Notes: a model not told the origin generated them from the sequence alone. A stretch of DNA of 64,000 nt from a bacterium (GCA_021801565.1 JAJYXV010000003.1:132894-196893); one strand, 5' to 3'; positions 50,038 through 62,215 are shown, counted from the stretch's first letter. Made by a program: numbers and translations.

Positions 50038-51645
50038 ATGAAACGGATTTATAGGGGGATTGTTGTATATGGTGCCCCGGGAACCGGCAAGACCACATTG
50101 GCGAAATCTATTGTCTATAATTTTTCCAATGCAAAGTATGTTGAGGCATCAAGTTTGGTTGTTTATCCCGCCTCAACACTTCAGAAGCTTCCTGTAAAAG
50201 AAAACGGATTTATCCAGGTAATTTGGAAAATTTATAAAAAACCGATTAATAAATATTTTTCCCGAGAAAATGCACGGGATTTTTTCACGTATCTTAAGAA
50301 TAAATATTCTTCTTCGGTGATTGCGAAAACAATCATTTATTTACACAAAAGAGATTTCTCAAAGAAATTTCTTATCGTGGCGGGGATACGCGGATATCGA
50401 AATTCTCTCTACTTTAAGAAAAATGGATATTTCGTTCTTTATCTGAAGGCACCAAATAAACAAATCACAAAGAGATTGGCGAAACGAGAAAATTTTTCTC
50501 GAAAATTTGCAGAAAAAGAACGAGAAATCGAAGAACGACTTTTTTCCACAAATAAGGTAGAAAAAATTGCGCATCTCTCGTTCAATACTGCTGTTACTAC
50601 AGAGAGGGAAATTATTTCACAATTGAAGGCACTTGTGGAGATACAAGAATGCAAACAATGCATAAATTCAAGCGCTAATTTATCATATTCCATCGGAAAG
50701 CTTGGTTTGTGCGAGGTGTGTGAAAAATATAAATTCTATTTTAGTAAAAAATCTCTTGAACAAGAATTAAAACTTTTCCTGTCCTTAAAAAAGAGTGGAA
50801 AAGGAAAATATGATGCAATGGTGGGTATCTCTGGTGGAAAAGACAGCACAGCGATGCTCTACGAGGTGAAAAAAATGGGTTTTACTCCTCTCGCGTTTTC
50901 ATTGGATTCTGGATACTATCCGAGGCACATATCAAAAAGAGCGAGGCAAGTTGCCAAACAATTGGGTGTTGATTATGAAAAAATTGATGCGAGAAAATAT
51001 ATTCGTCCTGCTGATCGCGCAAGTTTTCAAAACACAGCTGATTTATATAACGAACGCGAATCTCCCGAATTGAAAGAAAAGTTTCGAAAATGGTACACAG
51101 AAGGACGAAGACATTATTCCATAAAGTGTGAACATCGCATTCCTTTCATCCGGACGTGTCAGTTGTGCAGGCGTGTGATTATCCGGTCGTATTATGGAGA
51201 AGCGTTACGGCATGGTGTGCGAGTGGTGGTTCTTGGAATTAACGAGTGGGCGGGACTTAGCCAAAATAGTGAATCTAAAAAATTTGTTTTTTCTGCAATA
51301 AGAAAATTACAACCATTTAAGAATAAACCCGCGGTGCATGTGGTGCATCTTCCATTCCTTCTTCAGAGAAAAATCGGAGATACAAAAAAGATTTTGAAAA
51401 AACTTGGGTGGAAAATTCCTCGAGGAGAAGATCTGGTGGAATCAAATTCTAATTCCTGTCTTTTTGCCCGTGCTGCGGAAAGCAAGGCGCGGAGAATGCT
51501 CGGATTTCATCCCGATGCAACCCGTCTCGCAAGAGAGGTAACAGTTGGATTTATCACAAAAAACCAAGCGCGCAAGGCATTGGAAAAAACGCATAATTAT
51601 AAGTATTCTGTGAAAGAAGTTTTGAAAAAAGCAAAAGTAATTTAA
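50038..51645 (+). CDS. fusion protein: N-terminal P-loop NTPase/kinase-like domain + Cys pairs + PP-loop (SGGKDS) ATP pyrophosphatase domain (TtcA/TtuA-like)
   Basis: VVYGAPGTGKTTLAKS is the Walker A. CKQC...CEVCEKY are the Cys pairs. GISGGKDSTAML is the PP-loop. C-terminal CEHRIPFIRTCQLCRR is also present. Confidence 0.6.
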   Translation: MKRIYRGIVVYGAPGTGKTTLAKSIVYNFSNAKYVEASSLVVYPASTLQKLPVKENGFIQVIWKIYKKPINKYFSRENARDFFTYLKNKYSSSVIAKTIIYLHKRDFSKKFLIVAGIRGYRNSLYFKKNGYFVLYLKAPNKQITKRLAKRENFSRKFAEKEREIEERLFSTNKVEKIAHLSFNTAVTTEREIISQLKALVEIQECKQCINSSANLSYSIGKLGLCEVCEKYKFYFSKKSLEQELKLFLSLKKSGKGKYDAMVGISGGKDSTAMLYEVKKMGFTPLAFSLDSGYYPRHISKRARQVAKQLGVDYEKIDARKYIRPADRASFQNTADLYNERESPELKEKFRKWYTEGRRHYSIKCEHRIPFIRTCQLCRRVIIRSYYGEALRHGVRVVVLGINEWAGLSQNSESKKFVFSAIRKLQPFKNKPAVHVVHLPFLLQRKIGDTKKILKKLGWKIPRGEDLVESNSNSCLFARAAESKARRMLGFHPDATRLAREVTVGFITKNQARKALEKTHNYKYSVKEVLKKAKVI

Positions 51646-53809: not shown

Positions 53810-53875
53810 AAAACTACCTGATGTAATACAAAAACCCCGATGTGAAATCGGGTTTTTTTGTTATTTCATATTTTT

Positions 53876-54343
53876 TTATTCCACTACAATTGTTCCTTTC
53901 ATCCCTTTATCGAGATGACCTGGGACACTGCAATAAAACTGAAAGCTTCCAGTCTTATTTGCGGTGAATATCACATTTGTCTTTTTACCCGATTTAATAG
54001 TTTTTGACTTCACATTTAGTTCATTAATGACAAAGTTATGCGGATACTTACCGGTGTTGGTAAAAATAACTCTTACTCGTGCACCCTTTTTTACATGAAT
54101 TTCATTCGGTAAAAAACTAAACTCATTTCCAGCGATTGCCACGGTTTGTATTTTCTGCATTTTCTGTATTTTTTTCACCTTTTTTACAGCAACGGTTTTT
54201 TTCACTTTTTTGATTAAGTGCTTCCCACTACTCACTGCTTTCGTTGAAGTTGATTGAGGGGGAACTTGTGCGGATACTGGAATAGCCAAAAAGGCTAATG
54301 CAACCAGCATAAATGAAGCAGTAATAATTCCTTTTCTATACAT
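53876..54343 (-). CDS. secreted cupredoxin (plastocyanin/azurin-like type-1 copper protein)
   Basis: A signal peptide is present. The copper ligands are HNFV ... CSVPGHLDKGMKG (Cys-x2-PGH-x3-GM). Confidence 0.8.
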   Translation of the reverse strand: MYRKGIITASFMLVALAFLAIPVSAQVPPQSTSTKAVSSGKHLIKKVKKTVAVKKVKKIQKMQKIQTVAIAGNEFSFLPNEIHVKKGARVRVIFTNTGKYPHNFVINELNVKSKTIKSGKKTNVIFTANKTGSFQFYCSVPGHLDKGMKGTIVVE

Positions 54344-54598
54344 AAAACAAATACCTAAAGTCTTTTCTGTTCGACCTTTCTTTTATTTCTATACCTTCTA
54401 TACGTTTTTTCTAGGGAAAAAATTTCAAAATTTGGATTATGATACCGTGTTCTATTTTGATGCGTATCCTTGTTTATTAGCAGATAGATGAAGGGGGATT
54501 TGTTTATTTTATAAGCTATATTGAGATGCTAGTGTCGCCGGACAAAATGTATTATTATTATGTTCTGAAACGTATTAATAAAACGAGTATATTTTTAT

Positions 54599-55231
54599 AT
54601 GAAAAAAAAGTTGCTATCTATTTCTCTTATCCTTTCTTTTATTATTTATGCCGCGTATGAACGCATAACCGGACTTAGTGCATTATCCGTGGCGATAAAT
54701 AGAGAAAGCAAAAAAAATAATGTACCGATAGCTGATTCGACGTATATACCTACAACGCCGGTTATTCAACCACATCGTGTTCCTAGTGAAGACGACTATG
54801 AAGATGATGATGGATTTTTTGGTTCGCTTTTTGGCAAAAAAATTCCTTCTCCAACAAAACCTCCGGTACAAACAAGTCAACCAAAACCCGCCACTCCGAC
54901 ACCGGTTTCTCAGCCGACGCCTACCACCCCGACCGCCAACCCTGGTCTCTATCGCAGTGGGGAATATATCGGTTCGGTTGCTGATGCATATTATGGTAAC
55001 GTACAGGTAAAAGTTGTCGTTTCAGGTGGAAAAATTGCTGATGTACAATTTTTGAATTATCCGCAGGACAGAAATAACTCAATCCGGATTAATACTTATG
55101 CGATGCCGATTTTAACATCAGAGGCAATTCAAGCGCAGAATGCAAATGTTGATGCGGTTTCCGGTGCAACGGCAACAAGTGCAGCATTCAACGAATCGCT
55201 TGCATTCGCACTTGCTCAAGCAAAAAATTAA
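54599..55231 (+). CDS. extracytoplasmic FMN-binding domain protein (FMN_bind, RnfG/NqrC/PplA-like) with a Pro/Thr-rich linker
   Basis: An N-terminal TM/signal and a PTKPPVQTSQPKPATPTPVSQPTPTTP linker are present. The FMN_bind core is YGNVQVKVVVSGGKIADV...DAVSGATATS, whose Thr is the flavinylation site. Confidence 0.7.
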   Translation: MKKKLLSISLILSFIIYAAYERITGLSALSVAINRESKKNNVPIADSTYIPTTPVIQPHRVPSEDDYEDDDGFFGSLFGKKIPSPTKPPVQTSQPKPATPTPVSQPTPTTPTANPGLYRSGEYIGSVADAYYGNVQVKVVVSGGKIADVQFLNYPQDRNNSIRINTYAMPILTSEAIQAQNANVDAVSGATATSAAFNESLAFALAQAKN

Positions 55232-55232
55232 A

Positions 55233-55991
55233 ATGAAAAAAATCCAACTTATCATGGGCATGCCGATCATTGTGGAAATAGACGATCGTGAGGCATCATC
55301 CGAACTTTTTAATGAAGTCTTTTCATATTTTGTCTCTGTAGATGAAAAATTTAGTACATATAAAGAAACAAGCGAGATTAGTGCCATAAATCGCGGGGAG
55401 CTTAAAGAAGAGATGTGGAGCAACGACATGAAAGAAATTTTTGCTCTTTCCGAAGAAACAAAACGATTGACTGGCGGCTATTTTGATATAGTAACGCGGA
55501 ATGGCACGTATGATCCTTCCGGCCTTGTAAAGGGATGGGCAATTTTGAAAGCGGCGAATATTTTGCGTAGTCATGGAGTGAAGAATTTTTATATTGAAGC
55601 CGGTGGAGATATAGAAACAAGCGGCAAAAACACAGAAGGGAATTCGTGGTATATTGGCATCCAAAATCCATTCAATAAAAAAAGAGAAGTGGTAAAAACA
55701 GTATATTTACGCAATAAAGGAATTGCTACTTCAGGCACCTACCTCCGCGGTCAGCATATTTATAATCCAAATGATAAAAACAAACCACTGAAAGATGTGC
55801 TGAGTTTAACCGTTATTGGACCAAATGTATACGAAGCTGATCGTTTTGCCACTGCGGCATTTGCCATGGAAAACGCGGGTATTGAATTTATTGAAAGACT
55901 TGAAGGATTTGAAGGGTATCAAATCAACCATGACGGAAATGCTATAATGACGAGCGGATTTGCCAATTATATTTCCAATTCATATGTTTAA
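55233..55991 (+). CDS. FAD:protein FMN transferase (ApbE family)
   Basis: FDIVTRNGTYDPSGLVKGWAI, YIEAGGDI and the GIATSGTYLRG ApbE motifs are present. The start is taken at MKKIQLIMGMP. Confidence 0.85.
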   Translation: MKKIQLIMGMPIIVEIDDREASSELFNEVFSYFVSVDEKFSTYKETSEISAINRGELKEEMWSNDMKEIFALSEETKRLTGGYFDIVTRNGTYDPSGLVKGWAILKAANILRSHGVKNFYIEAGGDIETSGKNTEGNSWYIGIQNPFNKKREVVKTVYLRNKGIATSGTYLRGQHIYNPNDKNKPLKDVLSLTVIGPNVYEADRFATAAFAMENAGIEFIERLEGFEGYQINHDGNAIMTSGFANYISNSYV

Positions 55992-57519
55992 TTTTGTTGA
56001 TGATTTTTTGAACAGAACCACGATGTATCGGCTTGTCCTTTATGTTTTGCTTTTCTTTTTTGTTGTGGCACTTGCGCTTTCATTTTTCAAGTTACTTCCG
56101 TATGCTCCGGCGGATCTACTTTTATCCGCTGTTATTATTACAACAGTGTCATGGATAACAAATTTCGTTTTTGCGCGCGTATTTGAAGCGCCGGCAAATG
56201 TGGAATCAGTCTACATTACCGCACTTATTTTGTTCTGTATTATCACCCCCCCGCAGGGAAATGACTATTCCCAATTTCTTTCACTTGCCTTATGGGCGTC
56301 AATATGGTCAATGGCATCAAAATATATTTTTGCGATAGGTAAAAAACATATTTTTAATCCGGTGGCATTCGCCGTGACACTTACGGCATTTACAATTAAT
56401 GAATCAGCAAGCTGGTGGATTGGCACTATGTATATGCTTCCGTTTGTTTTTATCGGCGGTGTGTTGATTGTGAGAAAAATCCGTCGGGTTGATTTGATAT
56501 TTAGTTTTTTTATCGTTGCGTTTGTTACTATTATTAGTTTCGCCTTTATAAAGGGTACTAGTCCGGTGATTGCACTTTATAAGACCATTGTTAATTCGGC
56601 ATTTCTGTTTTTTGCTTTTGTGATGCTTACCGAGCCCTTAACGACTCCTCCCACAAAGTGGTTTCGCGTTGGATATGGCGCGCTTGTTGGATTTTTATTT
56701 GTACCCGCTATTCATATAGGCTCACTGTATTCAACTCCAGAACTCGCACTTGTTATCGGCAATATCTTCTCTTATATCGTGAGCCCGAAAGAGAAACTCA
56801 TTCTTTGTCTTAAAGAGCGAGTGAAGGTTGCAGATAATACATATGATTTTGTTTTCACAAATAATCGGAATTTTACGTTTCGACCCGGTCAATATATGGA
56901 ATGGACGCTTTCCCACCGTGATCCGGATTCGCGAGGGAACCGTCGATATTTCACCATTGCTTCGTCTCCTACAGAAAAAGACGTGCGTATTGGAGTCAGG
57001 TTTTATCCTGAGCCAAGCAGCTTTAAAAACAGAATCGCGTTTTTAGAGAAAGGAGATACAATTGTTGCATCCCAATGTGCCGGGGATTTTGTATTGCCCG
57101 ATAAAAAAGATCAAAAAATCGCTTTTATTGCTGGCGGCATTGGCGCGACGCCGTTTCGGAGCATGATGAAATATCTGTTGGATAAAAATGAAAAGCGACC
57201 GATTATAATGCTTTATTCAAACAAGACGATAAGTGACATTGCCTATAAAGATATTTTTGACAGCGCGGAATCTATGCTCGGCATAAAAACTGTTTATGCC
57301 GTAACCAATTCAGATAAAAATGAGATGCAACCGAGATGGCCGATTGTTTATGGATTTATTGATGCGGAAATGATAAAAAAAGAAGTGCCGGACTACCTTG
57401 AACGCACATTCTATGTTTCAGGCCCGCGTTCTATGGTTACCACTTTTGAGAAAACATTGCGCGATATGGGTGTCACACGGAGCAAAATAAAAACTGATTT
57501 TTTCCCTGGTTTTGTATAA
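55984..57519 (+). CDS. polytopic membrane domain fused to a ferredoxin-NADP-reductase-like FAD/NAD(P)-binding module
   Basis: About 270 aa of N-terminus with at least 6 TM helices is followed by FRPGQYMEWTL...RRYFTIASSP (the RxYS flavin motif) and GGIGATPFRSM (NAD binding). Confidence 0.7.
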   Translation: MFNFVDDFLNRTTMYRLVLYVLLFFFVVALALSFFKLLPYAPADLLLSAVIITTVSWITNFVFARVFEAPANVESVYITALILFCIITPPQGNDYSQFLSLALWASIWSMASKYIFAIGKKHIFNPVAFAVTLTAFTINESASWWIGTMYMLPFVFIGGVLIVRKIRRVDLIFSFFIVAFVTIISFAFIKGTSPVIALYKTIVNSAFLFFAFVMLTEPLTTPPTKWFRVGYGALVGFLFVPAIHIGSLYSTPELALVIGNIFSYIVSPKEKLILCLKERVKVADNTYDFVFTNNRNFTFRPGQYMEWTLSHRDPDSRGNRRYFTIASSPTEKDVRIGVRFYPEPSSFKNRIAFLEKGDTIVASQCAGDFVLPDKKDQKIAFIAGGIGATPFRSMMKYLLDKNEKRPIIMLYSNKTISDIAYKDIFDSAESMLGIKTVYAVTNSDKNEMQPRWPIVYGFIDAEMIKKEVPDYLERTFYVSGPRSMVTTFEKTLRDMGVTRSKIKTDFFPGFV

Positions 57520-57560: not shown

Positions 57561-57953
57561 ATGATGAAGCTTTTCGAGAAAATATTTCCTTCTGAACCAG
57601 AAAATAACATTAGAAACCTGCATAAAGATTTTAAGATTATTCATGATGGGTTTTGGTGTTTCAATAGGGAATTTAGCCCTCTTACAGATCGCGAGTTGAA
57701 TATAAAAGCAAAGATAATATTTGAAGATCCGTCACTTTTGGACGACTGCAAATTTCTTGCAAAGATTGGAAAAAATCTTGATATGAATATTCCGCTTCCA
57801 TATATCGGTTTTGCATACGGAAAAAATGAAGAGGAAGAAGCGCTTAAAAAATGGGTGGAAAAATTTCCCTATGTCGAATTGATACGCGGATTGGATAGGG
57901 AAGGAGTGATAAAAGAAGATAGTGAGGTGGTACAACTAAAAACATTACAATAA
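57561..57953 (+). CDS. hypothetical protein
   Basis: 130-aa ORF. Confidence 0.3.
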   Translation: MMKLFEKIFPSEPENNIRNLHKDFKIIHDGFWCFNREFSPLTDRELNIKAKIIFEDPSLLDDCKFLAKIGKNLDMNIPLPYIGFAYGKNEEEEALKKWVEKFPYVELIRGLDREGVIKEDSEVVQLKTLQ

Positions 57954-57955
57954 TA

Positions 57956-58852
57956 ATGAAAATATTTTTTACAGGAATAATTTTGGCGCTCATTATTGTT
58001 GGAGCGTGGTTTTTATATGCAAATGCTCCGCAACGGAACAATGGCATATCGGAACCAAAATTTGAAAATAAGGTTTTGTATATGTGTAAAAATTCAAAAA
58101 CAATTCAGGCGGTGTATCTTATTAGCGCTTCCATCAAGGCAAAGCCGGGCGAACGGCCCATACCAAACGGGAGTGTTGATATTACATTAAGCGATGGACG
58201 CACATTATCTCTTCCACAAACAATTTCGGCAAGCGGTATTCGTTATGCAAACAGTGATGAATCAATTGTCTTCTGGAGTAAGGGCAATGGAGCGTTTCTC
58301 CTTGAACACAATAAGGAAACATATATGGATTGTATAGCGATTGCGCCCGAATCAGGAAATCTTTCTAAAATTTATGCAAACAGCGCCGAAGGTTTTTCGC
58401 TTCGCTATCCCGCCGACTATTTAGTGAACACAACATATCAATATGAAGCACTTGGGCCAGGGAAAGAAATTAAGGGCGTGAAATTTACCATTCCGCTTGA
58501 AATGAGCACGGGCACGAATCTCTCCGGATATGATACAGGTATATCAATCGAAGAAATCCCAAATATTCAAAATTGCACCGCAAATCTATTTATTTACCAA
58601 AATATGAAAGCGGTTTCTGTGAGAGATGCAGATGTTGAATACTCTGTTGCGACCACAACTGGTGTTGGATTGGGAAATTATTATGATGAAACGGTGTGGG
58701 CATTTCCAGGAACAAATCTATGTATAGCGGTGCGATACCTTATTCATTCCATGAATATACAGAATTACACACCAGGAGCCGTTCACGAGTTTGATCGCAA
58801 AACTCTTCTCGAGCAGTTTGATGCGATACGGCGAACGTTAACGTTATTATAA
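57956..58852 (+). CDS. membrane-anchored secreted protein with a possible MliC-like (lysozyme-inhibitor) N-terminal domain
   Basis: A TM anchor is present. SASGIRYANSDESIVFWSKGNGAFL...C is a loose match to the MliC pattern. Confidence 0.35.
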   Translation: MKIFFTGIILALIIVGAWFLYANAPQRNNGISEPKFENKVLYMCKNSKTIQAVYLISASIKAKPGERPIPNGSVDITLSDGRTLSLPQTISASGIRYANSDESIVFWSKGNGAFLLEHNKETYMDCIAIAPESGNLSKIYANSAEGFSLRYPADYLVNTTYQYEALGPGKEIKGVKFTIPLEMSTGTNLSGYDTGISIEEIPNIQNCTANLFIYQNMKAVSVRDADVEYSVATTTGVGLGNYYDETVWAFPGTNLCIAVRYLIHSMNIQNYTPGAVHEFDRKTLLEQFDAIRRTLTLL

Positions 58853-61873: not shown

Positions 61874-62215
61874 CTATTGCTGTGTGCTCGAGGTATTTTG
61901 TTGATATTGATTCCACCCGCGCATCATTCTTCCCGGAATAAAATTATCTCCGTAATCGCCGGTGTTATATCCATAAAACATCATCGGATATCCGCCGCGG
62001 TGCATATTCCATCCGAAACCGCCGCCATATCCATAGACAGCACTTTTGAATTCACCGACTTTTACTCCCAGTGAGAACACGGCAATAAGGATAAGAATGC
62101 CAAGTATCCAGCGGAGAAGAATGTGTTTTCCTCCGTGGCAACACATTTTTTTACACCACCCGTTTTCACACATATGTTCGCATACCCCAGTATGCTCTTT
62201 TTTGTTTTCTTCCAT
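61874..62215 (-). CDS. small membrane protein with an N-terminal Cys/His cluster and a Gly/Tyr-rich C-terminus
   Basis: CEHMCENGWCKKMCCHGGKH is followed by a TM helix and then YGYGGGFGWNMHRGGYPMMFYGYNTGDYG. Confidence 0.35.
   Translation of the reverse strand: MEENKKEHTGVCEHMCENGWCKKMCCHGGKHILLRWILGILILIAVFSLGVKVGEFKSAVYGYGGGFGWNMHRGGYPMMFYGYNTGDYGDNFIPGRMMRGWNQYQQNTSSTQQ

Follow-up and report, generated by a model that had tools for sequence, protein, structure and literature searches.

Méheust et al. (2021, eLife) have described an "NQR/RNF-like system", defined as a flavinylation gene cluster which encodes a fusion of PF03116 and PF00175, with an ApbE or FMN_bind gene no more than five genes away (PMC8238504). 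They first reported 127 such clusters and proposed that electrons flow in one direction, from NAD(P)H to the outside (PMC8238504), and the system has been reported mainly in Actinobacteria and in the candidate phyla radiation (CPR) (PMC8238504, PMC11334425). Huang et al. (2024, mSystems) modelled the complex of Ktedonobacter racemifer, whose NqrB/RnfD-like subunit has no flavinylation site (PMC11334425, PMC10979944): the flavin mononucleotide (FMN) of the NqrC-like subunit is proposed to dock where the NqrB-like subunit binds flavin non-covalently, and the published AlphaFold-multimer model puts the NqrC-like subunit outside (PMC11334425). Here we analyse a three-gene operon with the parts of such a system, found at positions 54599-57519 of a 64,000-nucleotide stretch of bacterial DNA (GCA_021801565.1 JAJYXV010000003.1:132894-196893; hereafter the window), together with the cupredoxin gene beside it.

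The operon falls within the domain and gene-content part of the published definition (PMC8238504, PMC11334425): a single protein carries PF03116 in its N-terminal and PF00175 in its C-terminal half, and the ApbE and FMN_bind genes lie directly upstream. It is an ordinary member of this already described system and represents no new kind. The parts are the same (an apparently membrane-anchored NqrC/RnfG-like FMN_bind protein, an ApbE and the PF03116-PF00175 fusion), the Thr of NqrB/RnfD is likewise gone, the taxonomic range reported for the system includes the CPR, and we see no architectural difference. We consider it probable that the operon encodes a two-subunit Nqr/Rnf-like transmembrane electron-transfer complex along with its flavin transferase. 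The original prediction, made from the DNA alone, had read the locus in similar terms, as a flavinylation-based module of an NAD(P)H-binding FNR, a membrane domain and a covalent-FMN protein, and the domain assignments and the D185-T191 motif described below support this.

The four genes that had been predicted, one on the minus and three on the plus strand, are all present in the list of open reading frames (ORFs; Table 1), and the predicted translational coupling of the plus-strand genes is borne out by their junctions. The TAA stop of the FMN_bind gene (55229-55231) is followed by one base, A, and then by the ApbE ATG at 55233 (TAA-A-ATG, 55229-55235), and the start of the fusion overlaps the ApbE stop within ATGTTTAA (55984-55991). 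Because of these junctions, we describe the three genes as a tightly coupled operon. The cupredoxin gene is a separate unit, divergent and monocistronic.

The membrane half of the fusion had been described as a 6-TM domain, in an architecture that could be placed in no named family. By sequence profile and predicted fold it is of the NqrB/RnfD type, which places the protein in an NQR/RNF-like system. PF03116 (NQR2_RnfD_RnfE) matches residues 146-264 of the fusion with an E value of 2.7e-7 (30.7 bits, cutoff 27.7), and the Pfam family Ferric_reduct has no match in the protein. A single-sequence search of the PDB with the membrane domain returned no match; a 14-sequence profile of the domain matched Azotobacter RnfD (8ahx_D) at 8.5e-5, and hhalign against E. 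coli RsxD gave a probability of 93%. The AlphaFold2 models (pLDDT 79 and 81) show about 10 helices in the membrane part, rather than six. Foldseek searches with the full-length model gave mainly FNR-fold matches, so the membrane domain was modelled by itself (pLDDT 81, pTM 0.82): the top 15 Foldseek matches (E<=1.4e-3) are all RnfD or NqrB, with TM-scores of 0.56-0.69. Searched alone, the membrane domain has homologues in 377 clusters at 50% identity (E<=1e-30), and among those listed most are fusions of about 500 residues.

Global alignment to RsxD leaves one gap of about 79 residues, spanning RsxD 142-220 and including T187. On this alignment, the loop which bears the flavinylated Thr of RnfD/NqrB is deleted in the membrane domain, in agreement with the docking proposal of Huang et al. 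(PMC11334425). The sequence ESAS143WW was considered as a degenerate flavinylation site and rejected: it aligns with VQMTSW of RsxD, just past a helix, and not with SQAT187PL. Lys and Arg residues concentrate in alternate loops (116-125 and 164-168) and right after the last helix, and because of this distribution we favour an N-in/C-in topology. The pattern fits a cytoplasmic FNR module and an outside location for loop 139-151, at the position of the flavin loop of RnfD.

The C-terminal half of the fusion is an FNR module. PF00175 (NAD_binding_1) matches residues 381-488 (8.2e-14), and the module displays the motifs RRYFT(320) and GGIGATP(384) and a C-terminal aromatic FFPGFV. The Pfam domains named in the original prediction were matched throughout the locus (FMN_bind, ApbE, NAD_binding_1 and cupredoxin) except for FAD_binding_6, which has no match in the fusion at E<=0.01. 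The half that binds flavin adenine dinucleotide (FAD) is supported by full-length FNR-type matches in NCBIfam (residues 275-507), by a beta-barrel at residues 271-339 of the model and by the Foldseek matches. The best PDB sequence matches of the module are the FAD/NAD domains of NqrF (4e-15), and in Foldseek it resembles flavohaemoglobin, NqrF and related reductases (about 1e-15); by sequence, it is closest to NqrF. With its membrane half, the fusion is no soluble cytoplasmic reductase.

The FMN_bind protein consists of a short MKKK sequence and a hydrophobic segment (about residues 5-22), a linker of 87 residues rich in Pro, Thr and Ser (residues 29-115) and the FMN_bind domain (residues 131-205), and it has a weak NqrC match in NCBIfam. 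It had been called a lipoprotein, which it cannot be because it contains no cysteine. The N-terminus does carry the expected membrane/export segment: since there is neither a small residue at the -3 position nor a Cys, it looks like a signal-anchor, which would keep the protein attached to the membrane. Orthologs are present at 72 of 80 related loci, and in all of them a hydrophobic segment comes after a basic N-terminus. Near the C-terminus the motif D185-A-V-S-G-A-T191 follows the flavinylation consensus D-x-x-[S/T]-G-A-[S/T] (PMC12052999), and Thr191 is the predicted site of FMN attachment. An [ST]GA[ST] core near the C-terminus is found in 70 of the 72 orthologs (48 SGAT, 19 SGAS, 2 TGAS and 1 TGAT), preceded by D or N in those inspected.

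The ApbE-family protein (PF02424, 136.9 bits against a cutoff of 25.6) aligns with the solved ApbE of E. coli (4xgw, 2o18) and with that of V. cholerae; Salmonella ApbE (3pnd) was also matched. It corresponds to the mature E. coli and V. cholerae enzymes minus an internal deletion of about 60 residues. ATSG(165), H175 and D203 line up with the conserved Ser, His and Asp of these enzymes, which form the ApbE active-site triad (PMC12052999), so that the triad is kept. We assign the protein to the ApbE FMN transferases, with the Mg2+-dependent transfer of FMN from FAD to Thr as its predicted activity.

This ApbE is leaderless. It begins 8 residues before the conserved MGMP core with no hydrophobic N-terminus, and the in-frame extension upstream of its start is hydrophilic and overlaps the FMN_bind gene. 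The same holds for its relatives: none of the 69 full-scoring operon-linked ApbE proteins (loci L001-L080, Chloroflexota included) has an export signal or lipobox, and all 69 start MK(E/Q)TRIIMGMP-like. Characterised ApbEs with extracytosolic targets are exported lipoproteins, and cytoplasmic ApbEs with cytoplasmic targets are known as well, for example for Klebsiella fumarate reductase (PMC12052999). Because the ApbE here is leaderless while the known ApbEs for extracytosolic targets are exported, one of three options must hold: the C-terminal domain is flavinylated ahead of its translocation, ApbE is exported along a route not yet recognised, or the FMN domain lies inside the cell. We found no discussion of a leaderless ApbE beside an exported-looking substrate in the accessible text of PMC8238504 and PMC11334425. 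Recoding at the A-rich TAA-A-ATG junction, by which ApbE could be exported fused to the FMN_bind protein through a frameshift or readthrough, was considered and is unlikely: from locus to locus, the two genes stand in different frames relative to each other (0, +1 and +2). The leaderless state may explain why flavinylation appears under-represented in CPR in the survey of Méheust et al., which filtered on signal peptides (PMC8238504).

Table 1 Features of the operon and of the adjoining cupredoxin gene (positions in the window).
Feature	Position	Strand	Details
NqrC/RnfG-like FMN_bind subunit	54599-55231	+	210 aa; Pfam PF04205 1.1e-9
Predicted flavinylation motif D185-A-V-S-G-A-T191	55151-55171	+	19 residues from the C-terminus
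ApbE-family FAD:protein FMN transferase (predicted), shortened and leaderless	55233-55991	+	252 aa (from the ATG of the original prediction); PF02424 1.2e-39
Fusion protein	55984-57519	+	511 aa
NqrB/RnfD-like membrane domain	55984-56793	+	fusion aa 1-270, ~10 TM helices; PF03116
NqrF/FNR-type FAD + NAD(P)H module	56794-57519	+	fusion aa 271-511; PF00175
Exported (predicted) type-1 (blue) copper protein	53876-54343	-	155 aa; Cupredoxin_1 (PF13473) 1.3e-17, Copper-bind (PF00127) 1.6e-12
Intergenic region	54344-54598		255 bp, AT-rich, between the cupredoxin gene and the operon
Terminator-like hairpin	53836-53852	both	CCCGATGTGAAATCGGG, then T-runs on either strand; between the CYTH gene and the cupredoxin 3' end

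The fusion is widespread, with homologues in more than 7,900 clusters at 90% identity and in at least 567 species-level genomes (one genome per species), mostly Patescibacteria of many lineages, plus Chloroflexota. The best named homologues all come from Patescibacteria (Lloydbacteria, Nomurabacteria and Paceibacterota), on which we base the placement of the host in the CPR, and they are annotated as "RnfABCDGE type electron transport complex subunit D" or "ferredoxin-NADP reductase". Gene neighbourhoods were counted at the best 80 loci (L001-L080), with flanks within 6 kb. At 64 loci the three genes lie on the same strand as FMN_bind, ApbE, fusion, and one or both partner genes are rearranged at 8 more; 5 loci have neither partner gene, and in 3 of these 5 the sequence upstream is shorter than 1.7 kb. 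All-against-all clustering of the flanking ORFs returned FMN_bind, ApbE and the fusion as the only universally shared genes. The operon, which had been thought unexpected in a CPR organism, is thus a standard and strongly conserved feature of the CPR, as the published distribution and the genome count both indicate.

Other genes recur near the operon less often. A MacAB-type efflux system is represented by an ABC ATPase at 22 loci, an HlyD-like adaptor at 17 and a MacB/FtsX permease at 12, and a gene for an extracytoplasmic function (ECF) sigma factor lies within 6 kb at 16 loci. All vary in position and orientation, and we take the efflux, ABC ATPase and ECF sigma genes, at 12-22 loci, to be common CPR neighbours and not components.

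CPR bacteria, or Patescibacteria, are usually described as having no electron-transport chains. A conserved device of three genes, by which NAD(P)H electrons could reach the cell surface, matters for the redox balance of these ultra-small cells and for their interaction with hosts or minerals. The idea of surface electrons has already been published in bioinformatic form. To it we add a representative operon, evidence that the family is very large and far exceeds 127 clusters, and a cupredoxin alongside in this genome. The conserved unit proves to be the operon without the cupredoxin, and a puzzle arises that is concrete and can be tested: in all operons examined the ApbE is leaderless, although its substrate would face outward.

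Na+-NQR (NqrA-F) and Rnf (RnfA-E,G) share with the operon the NqrB/RnfD fold, the NqrF-like module, the NqrC/RnfG motif and ApbE as the maturation enzyme. However, just two of the six subunits are represented: the operon has no NqrD/E (RnfA/E), NqrA or RnfB/C and no 2Fe-2S domain of NqrF. A full Rnf/Nqr subunit set is present neither in the three genes nor in their flanks, and no such genes recur at the 80 loci. The loop of the covalent-FMN Thr is deleted by alignment, the NAD(P)H module is fused straight to the NqrB-like domain, and neither a quinone nor a ferredoxin site can be recognised. Electrons are presumed to move outward in one direction, whereas their flow is semicircular in Na+-NQR and Rnf.

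The original prediction had likened the locus to the PplA/FmnB/NADH dehydrogenase logic of Listeria, and this holds as a loose analogy. Flavin-based extracellular electron transfer in Listeria monocytogenes (Ndh2, DmkA/B, EetA/B, PplA, FmnB, FmnA/RibU) likewise involves ApbE-type FMN loading of an extracytosolic FMN_bind protein which takes electrons from cytoplasmic NADH. The membrane step is carried out there by Ndh2, demethylmenaquinone and EetA/B, whereas here it would fall to the RnfD-FNR fusion, and a quinone step is not apparent. Both PplA and FmnB are lipoproteins, whereas the target here appears signal-anchored and the ApbE has no signal. Neither Ndh2, EetA/EetB and demethylmenaquinone synthesis genes nor an FAD exporter are found in the operon or its immediate flanks.

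Starting from the gene content, domain identities, fold, motif and operon conservation, we infer the topology, the cofactors of the membrane domain, the direction of flow and the acceptor as follows. Cytoplasmic NAD(P)H would reduce the FAD of the C-terminal NqrF/FNR-type module, and electrons would then cross the membrane via the 10-helix NqrB/RnfD-type domain, probably with the help of a non-covalent flavin in its pocket, where NqrB has FMN and riboflavin. They would next reach the FMN which ApbE is predicted to attach through a phosphoester to Thr191 of the NqrC/RnfG-like subunit, on the outer face, and would finally pass to an extracytosolic acceptor. The net effect would be to regenerate NAD(P)+ or to send reducing power outside, in an organism apparently without a conventional respiratory chain.

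Several points weigh against this scheme. The topology is based on charge counting and homology. The identified cofactors are the FAD and one covalent FMN, and spanning the membrane distance requires an additional one. A leaderless ApbE in every ortholog fits poorly with the flavinylation of an outward-facing domain, and no second conserved partner gene was found at the 80 loci. Our search of the literature found no experimental characterisation of any member of the Nqr/Rnf-like system, and apart from an ApbE review and the two papers on flavinylation it yielded no CPR-specific work on the system or on a connection to blue copper.

The electron-transfer complex may also be combined with the ApbE puzzle into a broader reading for the system of Patescibacteria and Chloroflexota. 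ApbE would act in the cytoplasm and load FMN onto Thr191 of the FMN_bind protein ahead of the passage of this protein to the outside, which would yield a surface covalent flavin with no export of FAD or ApbE. The NAD(P)H electrons of supposedly purely fermentative organisms could then leave mainly through the two-subunit complex, which might be ion-coupled. This reading is unlikely.

It is unlikely that, instead of being a bulk sink for NAD(P)H, the module reduces ferric iron or other metals in the service of iron assimilation, or provides repair or redox enzymes outside the cytosol with electrons. Méheust et al. suggested iron assimilation, with the ferrous-iron transporter VIT1 present in 6 of the 127 NQR/RNF-like clusters (PMC8238504), but no iron transporter adjoins the operon in the window or is among the recurrent neighbours at the 80 loci. 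Metal-handling genes do lie near a few related loci (Cu-ATPase, HMA and DsbD-like, and a cation-efflux gene in L085 and L091). Analogous membrane and FNR designs (FRE/NOX) are ferric or oxygen reductases, and SpNOX and DUOX were matched through the FNR domain. Like the fusion, bacterial NOX and ferric reductases (SpNOX, 8qq7) have a membrane domain and a C-terminal FNR module on one chain and send electrons outward. Their membrane domain, however, is a 6-TM di-haem domain, whereas that of the fusion is a roughly 10-TM NqrB/RnfD fold which is presumably flavin-loaded, so that the match is confined to the FNR half.

The cupredoxin could be a dedicated acceptor, with electrons passing from NAD(P)H through FAD, FMN and blue copper to a terminal copper enzyme or to O2 or nitrite, as in a flavin-to-copper mini respiratory chain. 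We consider this quite unlikely. Flavin to type-1 copper transfer is thermodynamically downhill, the gene lies divergent and adjacent to the operon across a shared 255 bp, and the nearest solved relatives of the protein, the additional cupredoxin domains at the N-terminus of NirK (6tfd and 2dv6), are electron-donating domains. However, no cupredoxin ortholog was found within 6 kb of the operon at any of the 80 loci, where the family hidden Markov model gave 4 weak matches to other cupredoxin-domain proteins, and in the closest relative of the fusion (77% identity) the gene upstream of the operon encodes an NTPase and not a cupredoxin. No terminal copper oxidase or nitrite reductase is among the 14 window proteins scanned, which are a minority of the window. 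Among the 16 cupredoxin homologues retrieved, orthologs from one other lineage, on two syntenic contigs (L085 and L091, 59-60% identity), lie 3.7 kb from the operon; the ortholog in Gottesmanbacteria adjoins a copper-resistance cluster (CopA/CsoR/HMA), and at the other sites inspected the surroundings are unrelated. The cupredoxin is not part of the conserved operon unit and would be at most an occasional, lineage-specific acceptor; L085 and L091 keep such a lineage-specific link possible, if weak. Of the earlier claims about this gene, the divergent, exported type-1 copper protein stands on its ligands and signal-like segment, and membership in the module does not.

The assignment as a type-1 copper protein is also supported by NCBIfam. 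The N-terminus is a hydrophobic signal-like segment, MYRKGIITASFMLVALAFLAIPVSA followed by Q, and the full ligand set (His102, Cys138, His143 and Met148) is present with canonical spacing and kept across orthologs. The His-Cys-His-Met site and the cupredoxin signature are shared with the NirK-fused domains (6tfd, 2dv6) and plastocyanin-type proteins. In contrast to the NirK-fused cupredoxins, the window protein is stand-alone and apparently exported, has a Lys-rich linker, and has some orthologs in copper-resistance clusters. This linker, KHLIKKVKKTVAVKKVKKIQKMQKIQ (53999-54148 on the minus strand, residues 41-66), which is unusually rich in Lys, lies between the signal-like segment and the copper domain; it could tether the protein to an anionic cell surface. 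The more distant orthologs mostly align over just 55-63% of the query, and the N-terminal region is therefore probably not shared with them.

Some genes near the cupredoxin orthologs of other genomes deserve mention in their own right. In L085 (3082-3555) and L091 (2793-3266), a PNPOx_N gene, for an FMN-binding pyridoxamine-phosphate-oxidase-like protein, divergently adjoins the FMN_bind gene, and in both contigs a cation-efflux (CDF) gene flanks the cupredoxin. The Gottesmanbacteria copper cluster encodes a CopA-type ATPase, a CsoR-type repressor, HMA proteins and a DsbD_2-Cupredoxin_1 fusion. NiFe-hydrogenase genes share the Gottesmanbacteria contig with this cluster, which adjoins the cupredoxin ortholog (L086 2732-4021 and 8192-12838; L087 992-2933); the large subunit is encoded on both contigs and the small subunit on L087.

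It is very unlikely that the flavinylated domain and ApbE are both cytoplasmic, in an inward-facing, membrane-bound NAD(P)H:flavoprotein oxidoreductase or in some other cytoplasmic flavinylation role with no electron export. This would account for the leaderless ApbE of the window and of all 69 orthologs, and has a precedent in the cytoplasmic ApbEs for cytoplasmic targets such as Klebsiella fumarate reductase (PMC12052999). However, the basic N-terminus, hydrophobic helix and long linker rich in Pro, Thr and Ser of the FMN_bind protein are typical of N-in/C-out exported domains, and the RnfD loop which the FMN would replace maps to the outer face, where the published multimer model also has the subunit (PMC11334425). 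A purely cytoplasmic reaction would, moreover, make the membrane domain pointless.

Least probable of all is a coupling of electron transfer in the NqrB/RnfD-like domain to Na+ or H+ translocation, by which the complex would energise the CPR membrane as a minimal ion pump driven by redox reactions: the NqrB/RnfD fold itself participates in ion translocation, the Rnf and Na+-NQR complexes that supply the best structural matches (RnfD and NqrB) translocate ions, and invariant polar or charged residues (N72, E74, S75, K113, E217, E253 and N260) lie in or beside the predicted helices, but NqrD/E (RnfA/E) with its intramembrane Fe-S centre, central to Nqr/Rnf coupling, is absent, and the published view is of simple unidirectional transfer (PMC8238504, PMC11334425).

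The genes which flank the operon encode CYTH, cupredoxin, hypothetical and MliC-domain proteins, and the wider set of immediate neighbours comprises AAA/PP-loop ATPase, HAD-type hydrolase, CYTH, MliC-domain, DEAD-box helicase and phosphoglycerate-mutase-like proteins; none of these immediate neighbours offers an electron acceptor. Promoters for the operon as well as for the cupredoxin gene are presumably located in the 255-bp spacer. Hexamers that resemble promoter elements, at 54521-54548 and 54565-54593 (plus strand), are no commoner than in shuffled sequences and are candidates only.

Genes of the vitamin K epoxide reductase (VKOR) family are found in contigs of Patescibacteria (L081 15547-15945, L082 9147-9545 and L087 2988-3431); in the closest relative, the distance to the operon is 6 kb. 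For its activity VKOR normally requires quinone, which the CPR are thought not to make.

Downstream of the operon in the window, a 130-aa ORF with no Pfam match (57561-57953) precedes the gene for a membrane-anchored protein of 298 aa with an MliC (lysozyme-inhibitor) domain (57956-58852, plus strand; 9e-11). On the other side, 50038-51645 (plus strand) encodes an unusual fusion of 535 aa, with an N-terminal P-loop kinase/AAA-like region, a PP-loop ATPase region (QueC/NAD synthase-like, weak matches) and Cys-rich motifs. Finally, a small ORF on the minus strand (61874-62215), which has no Pfam match, starts with a stretch rich in Cys and His (MEENKKEHTGVCEHMCENGWCKKMCCHGGKH), has a hydrophobic segment after it and may encode a metal-binding membrane protein.

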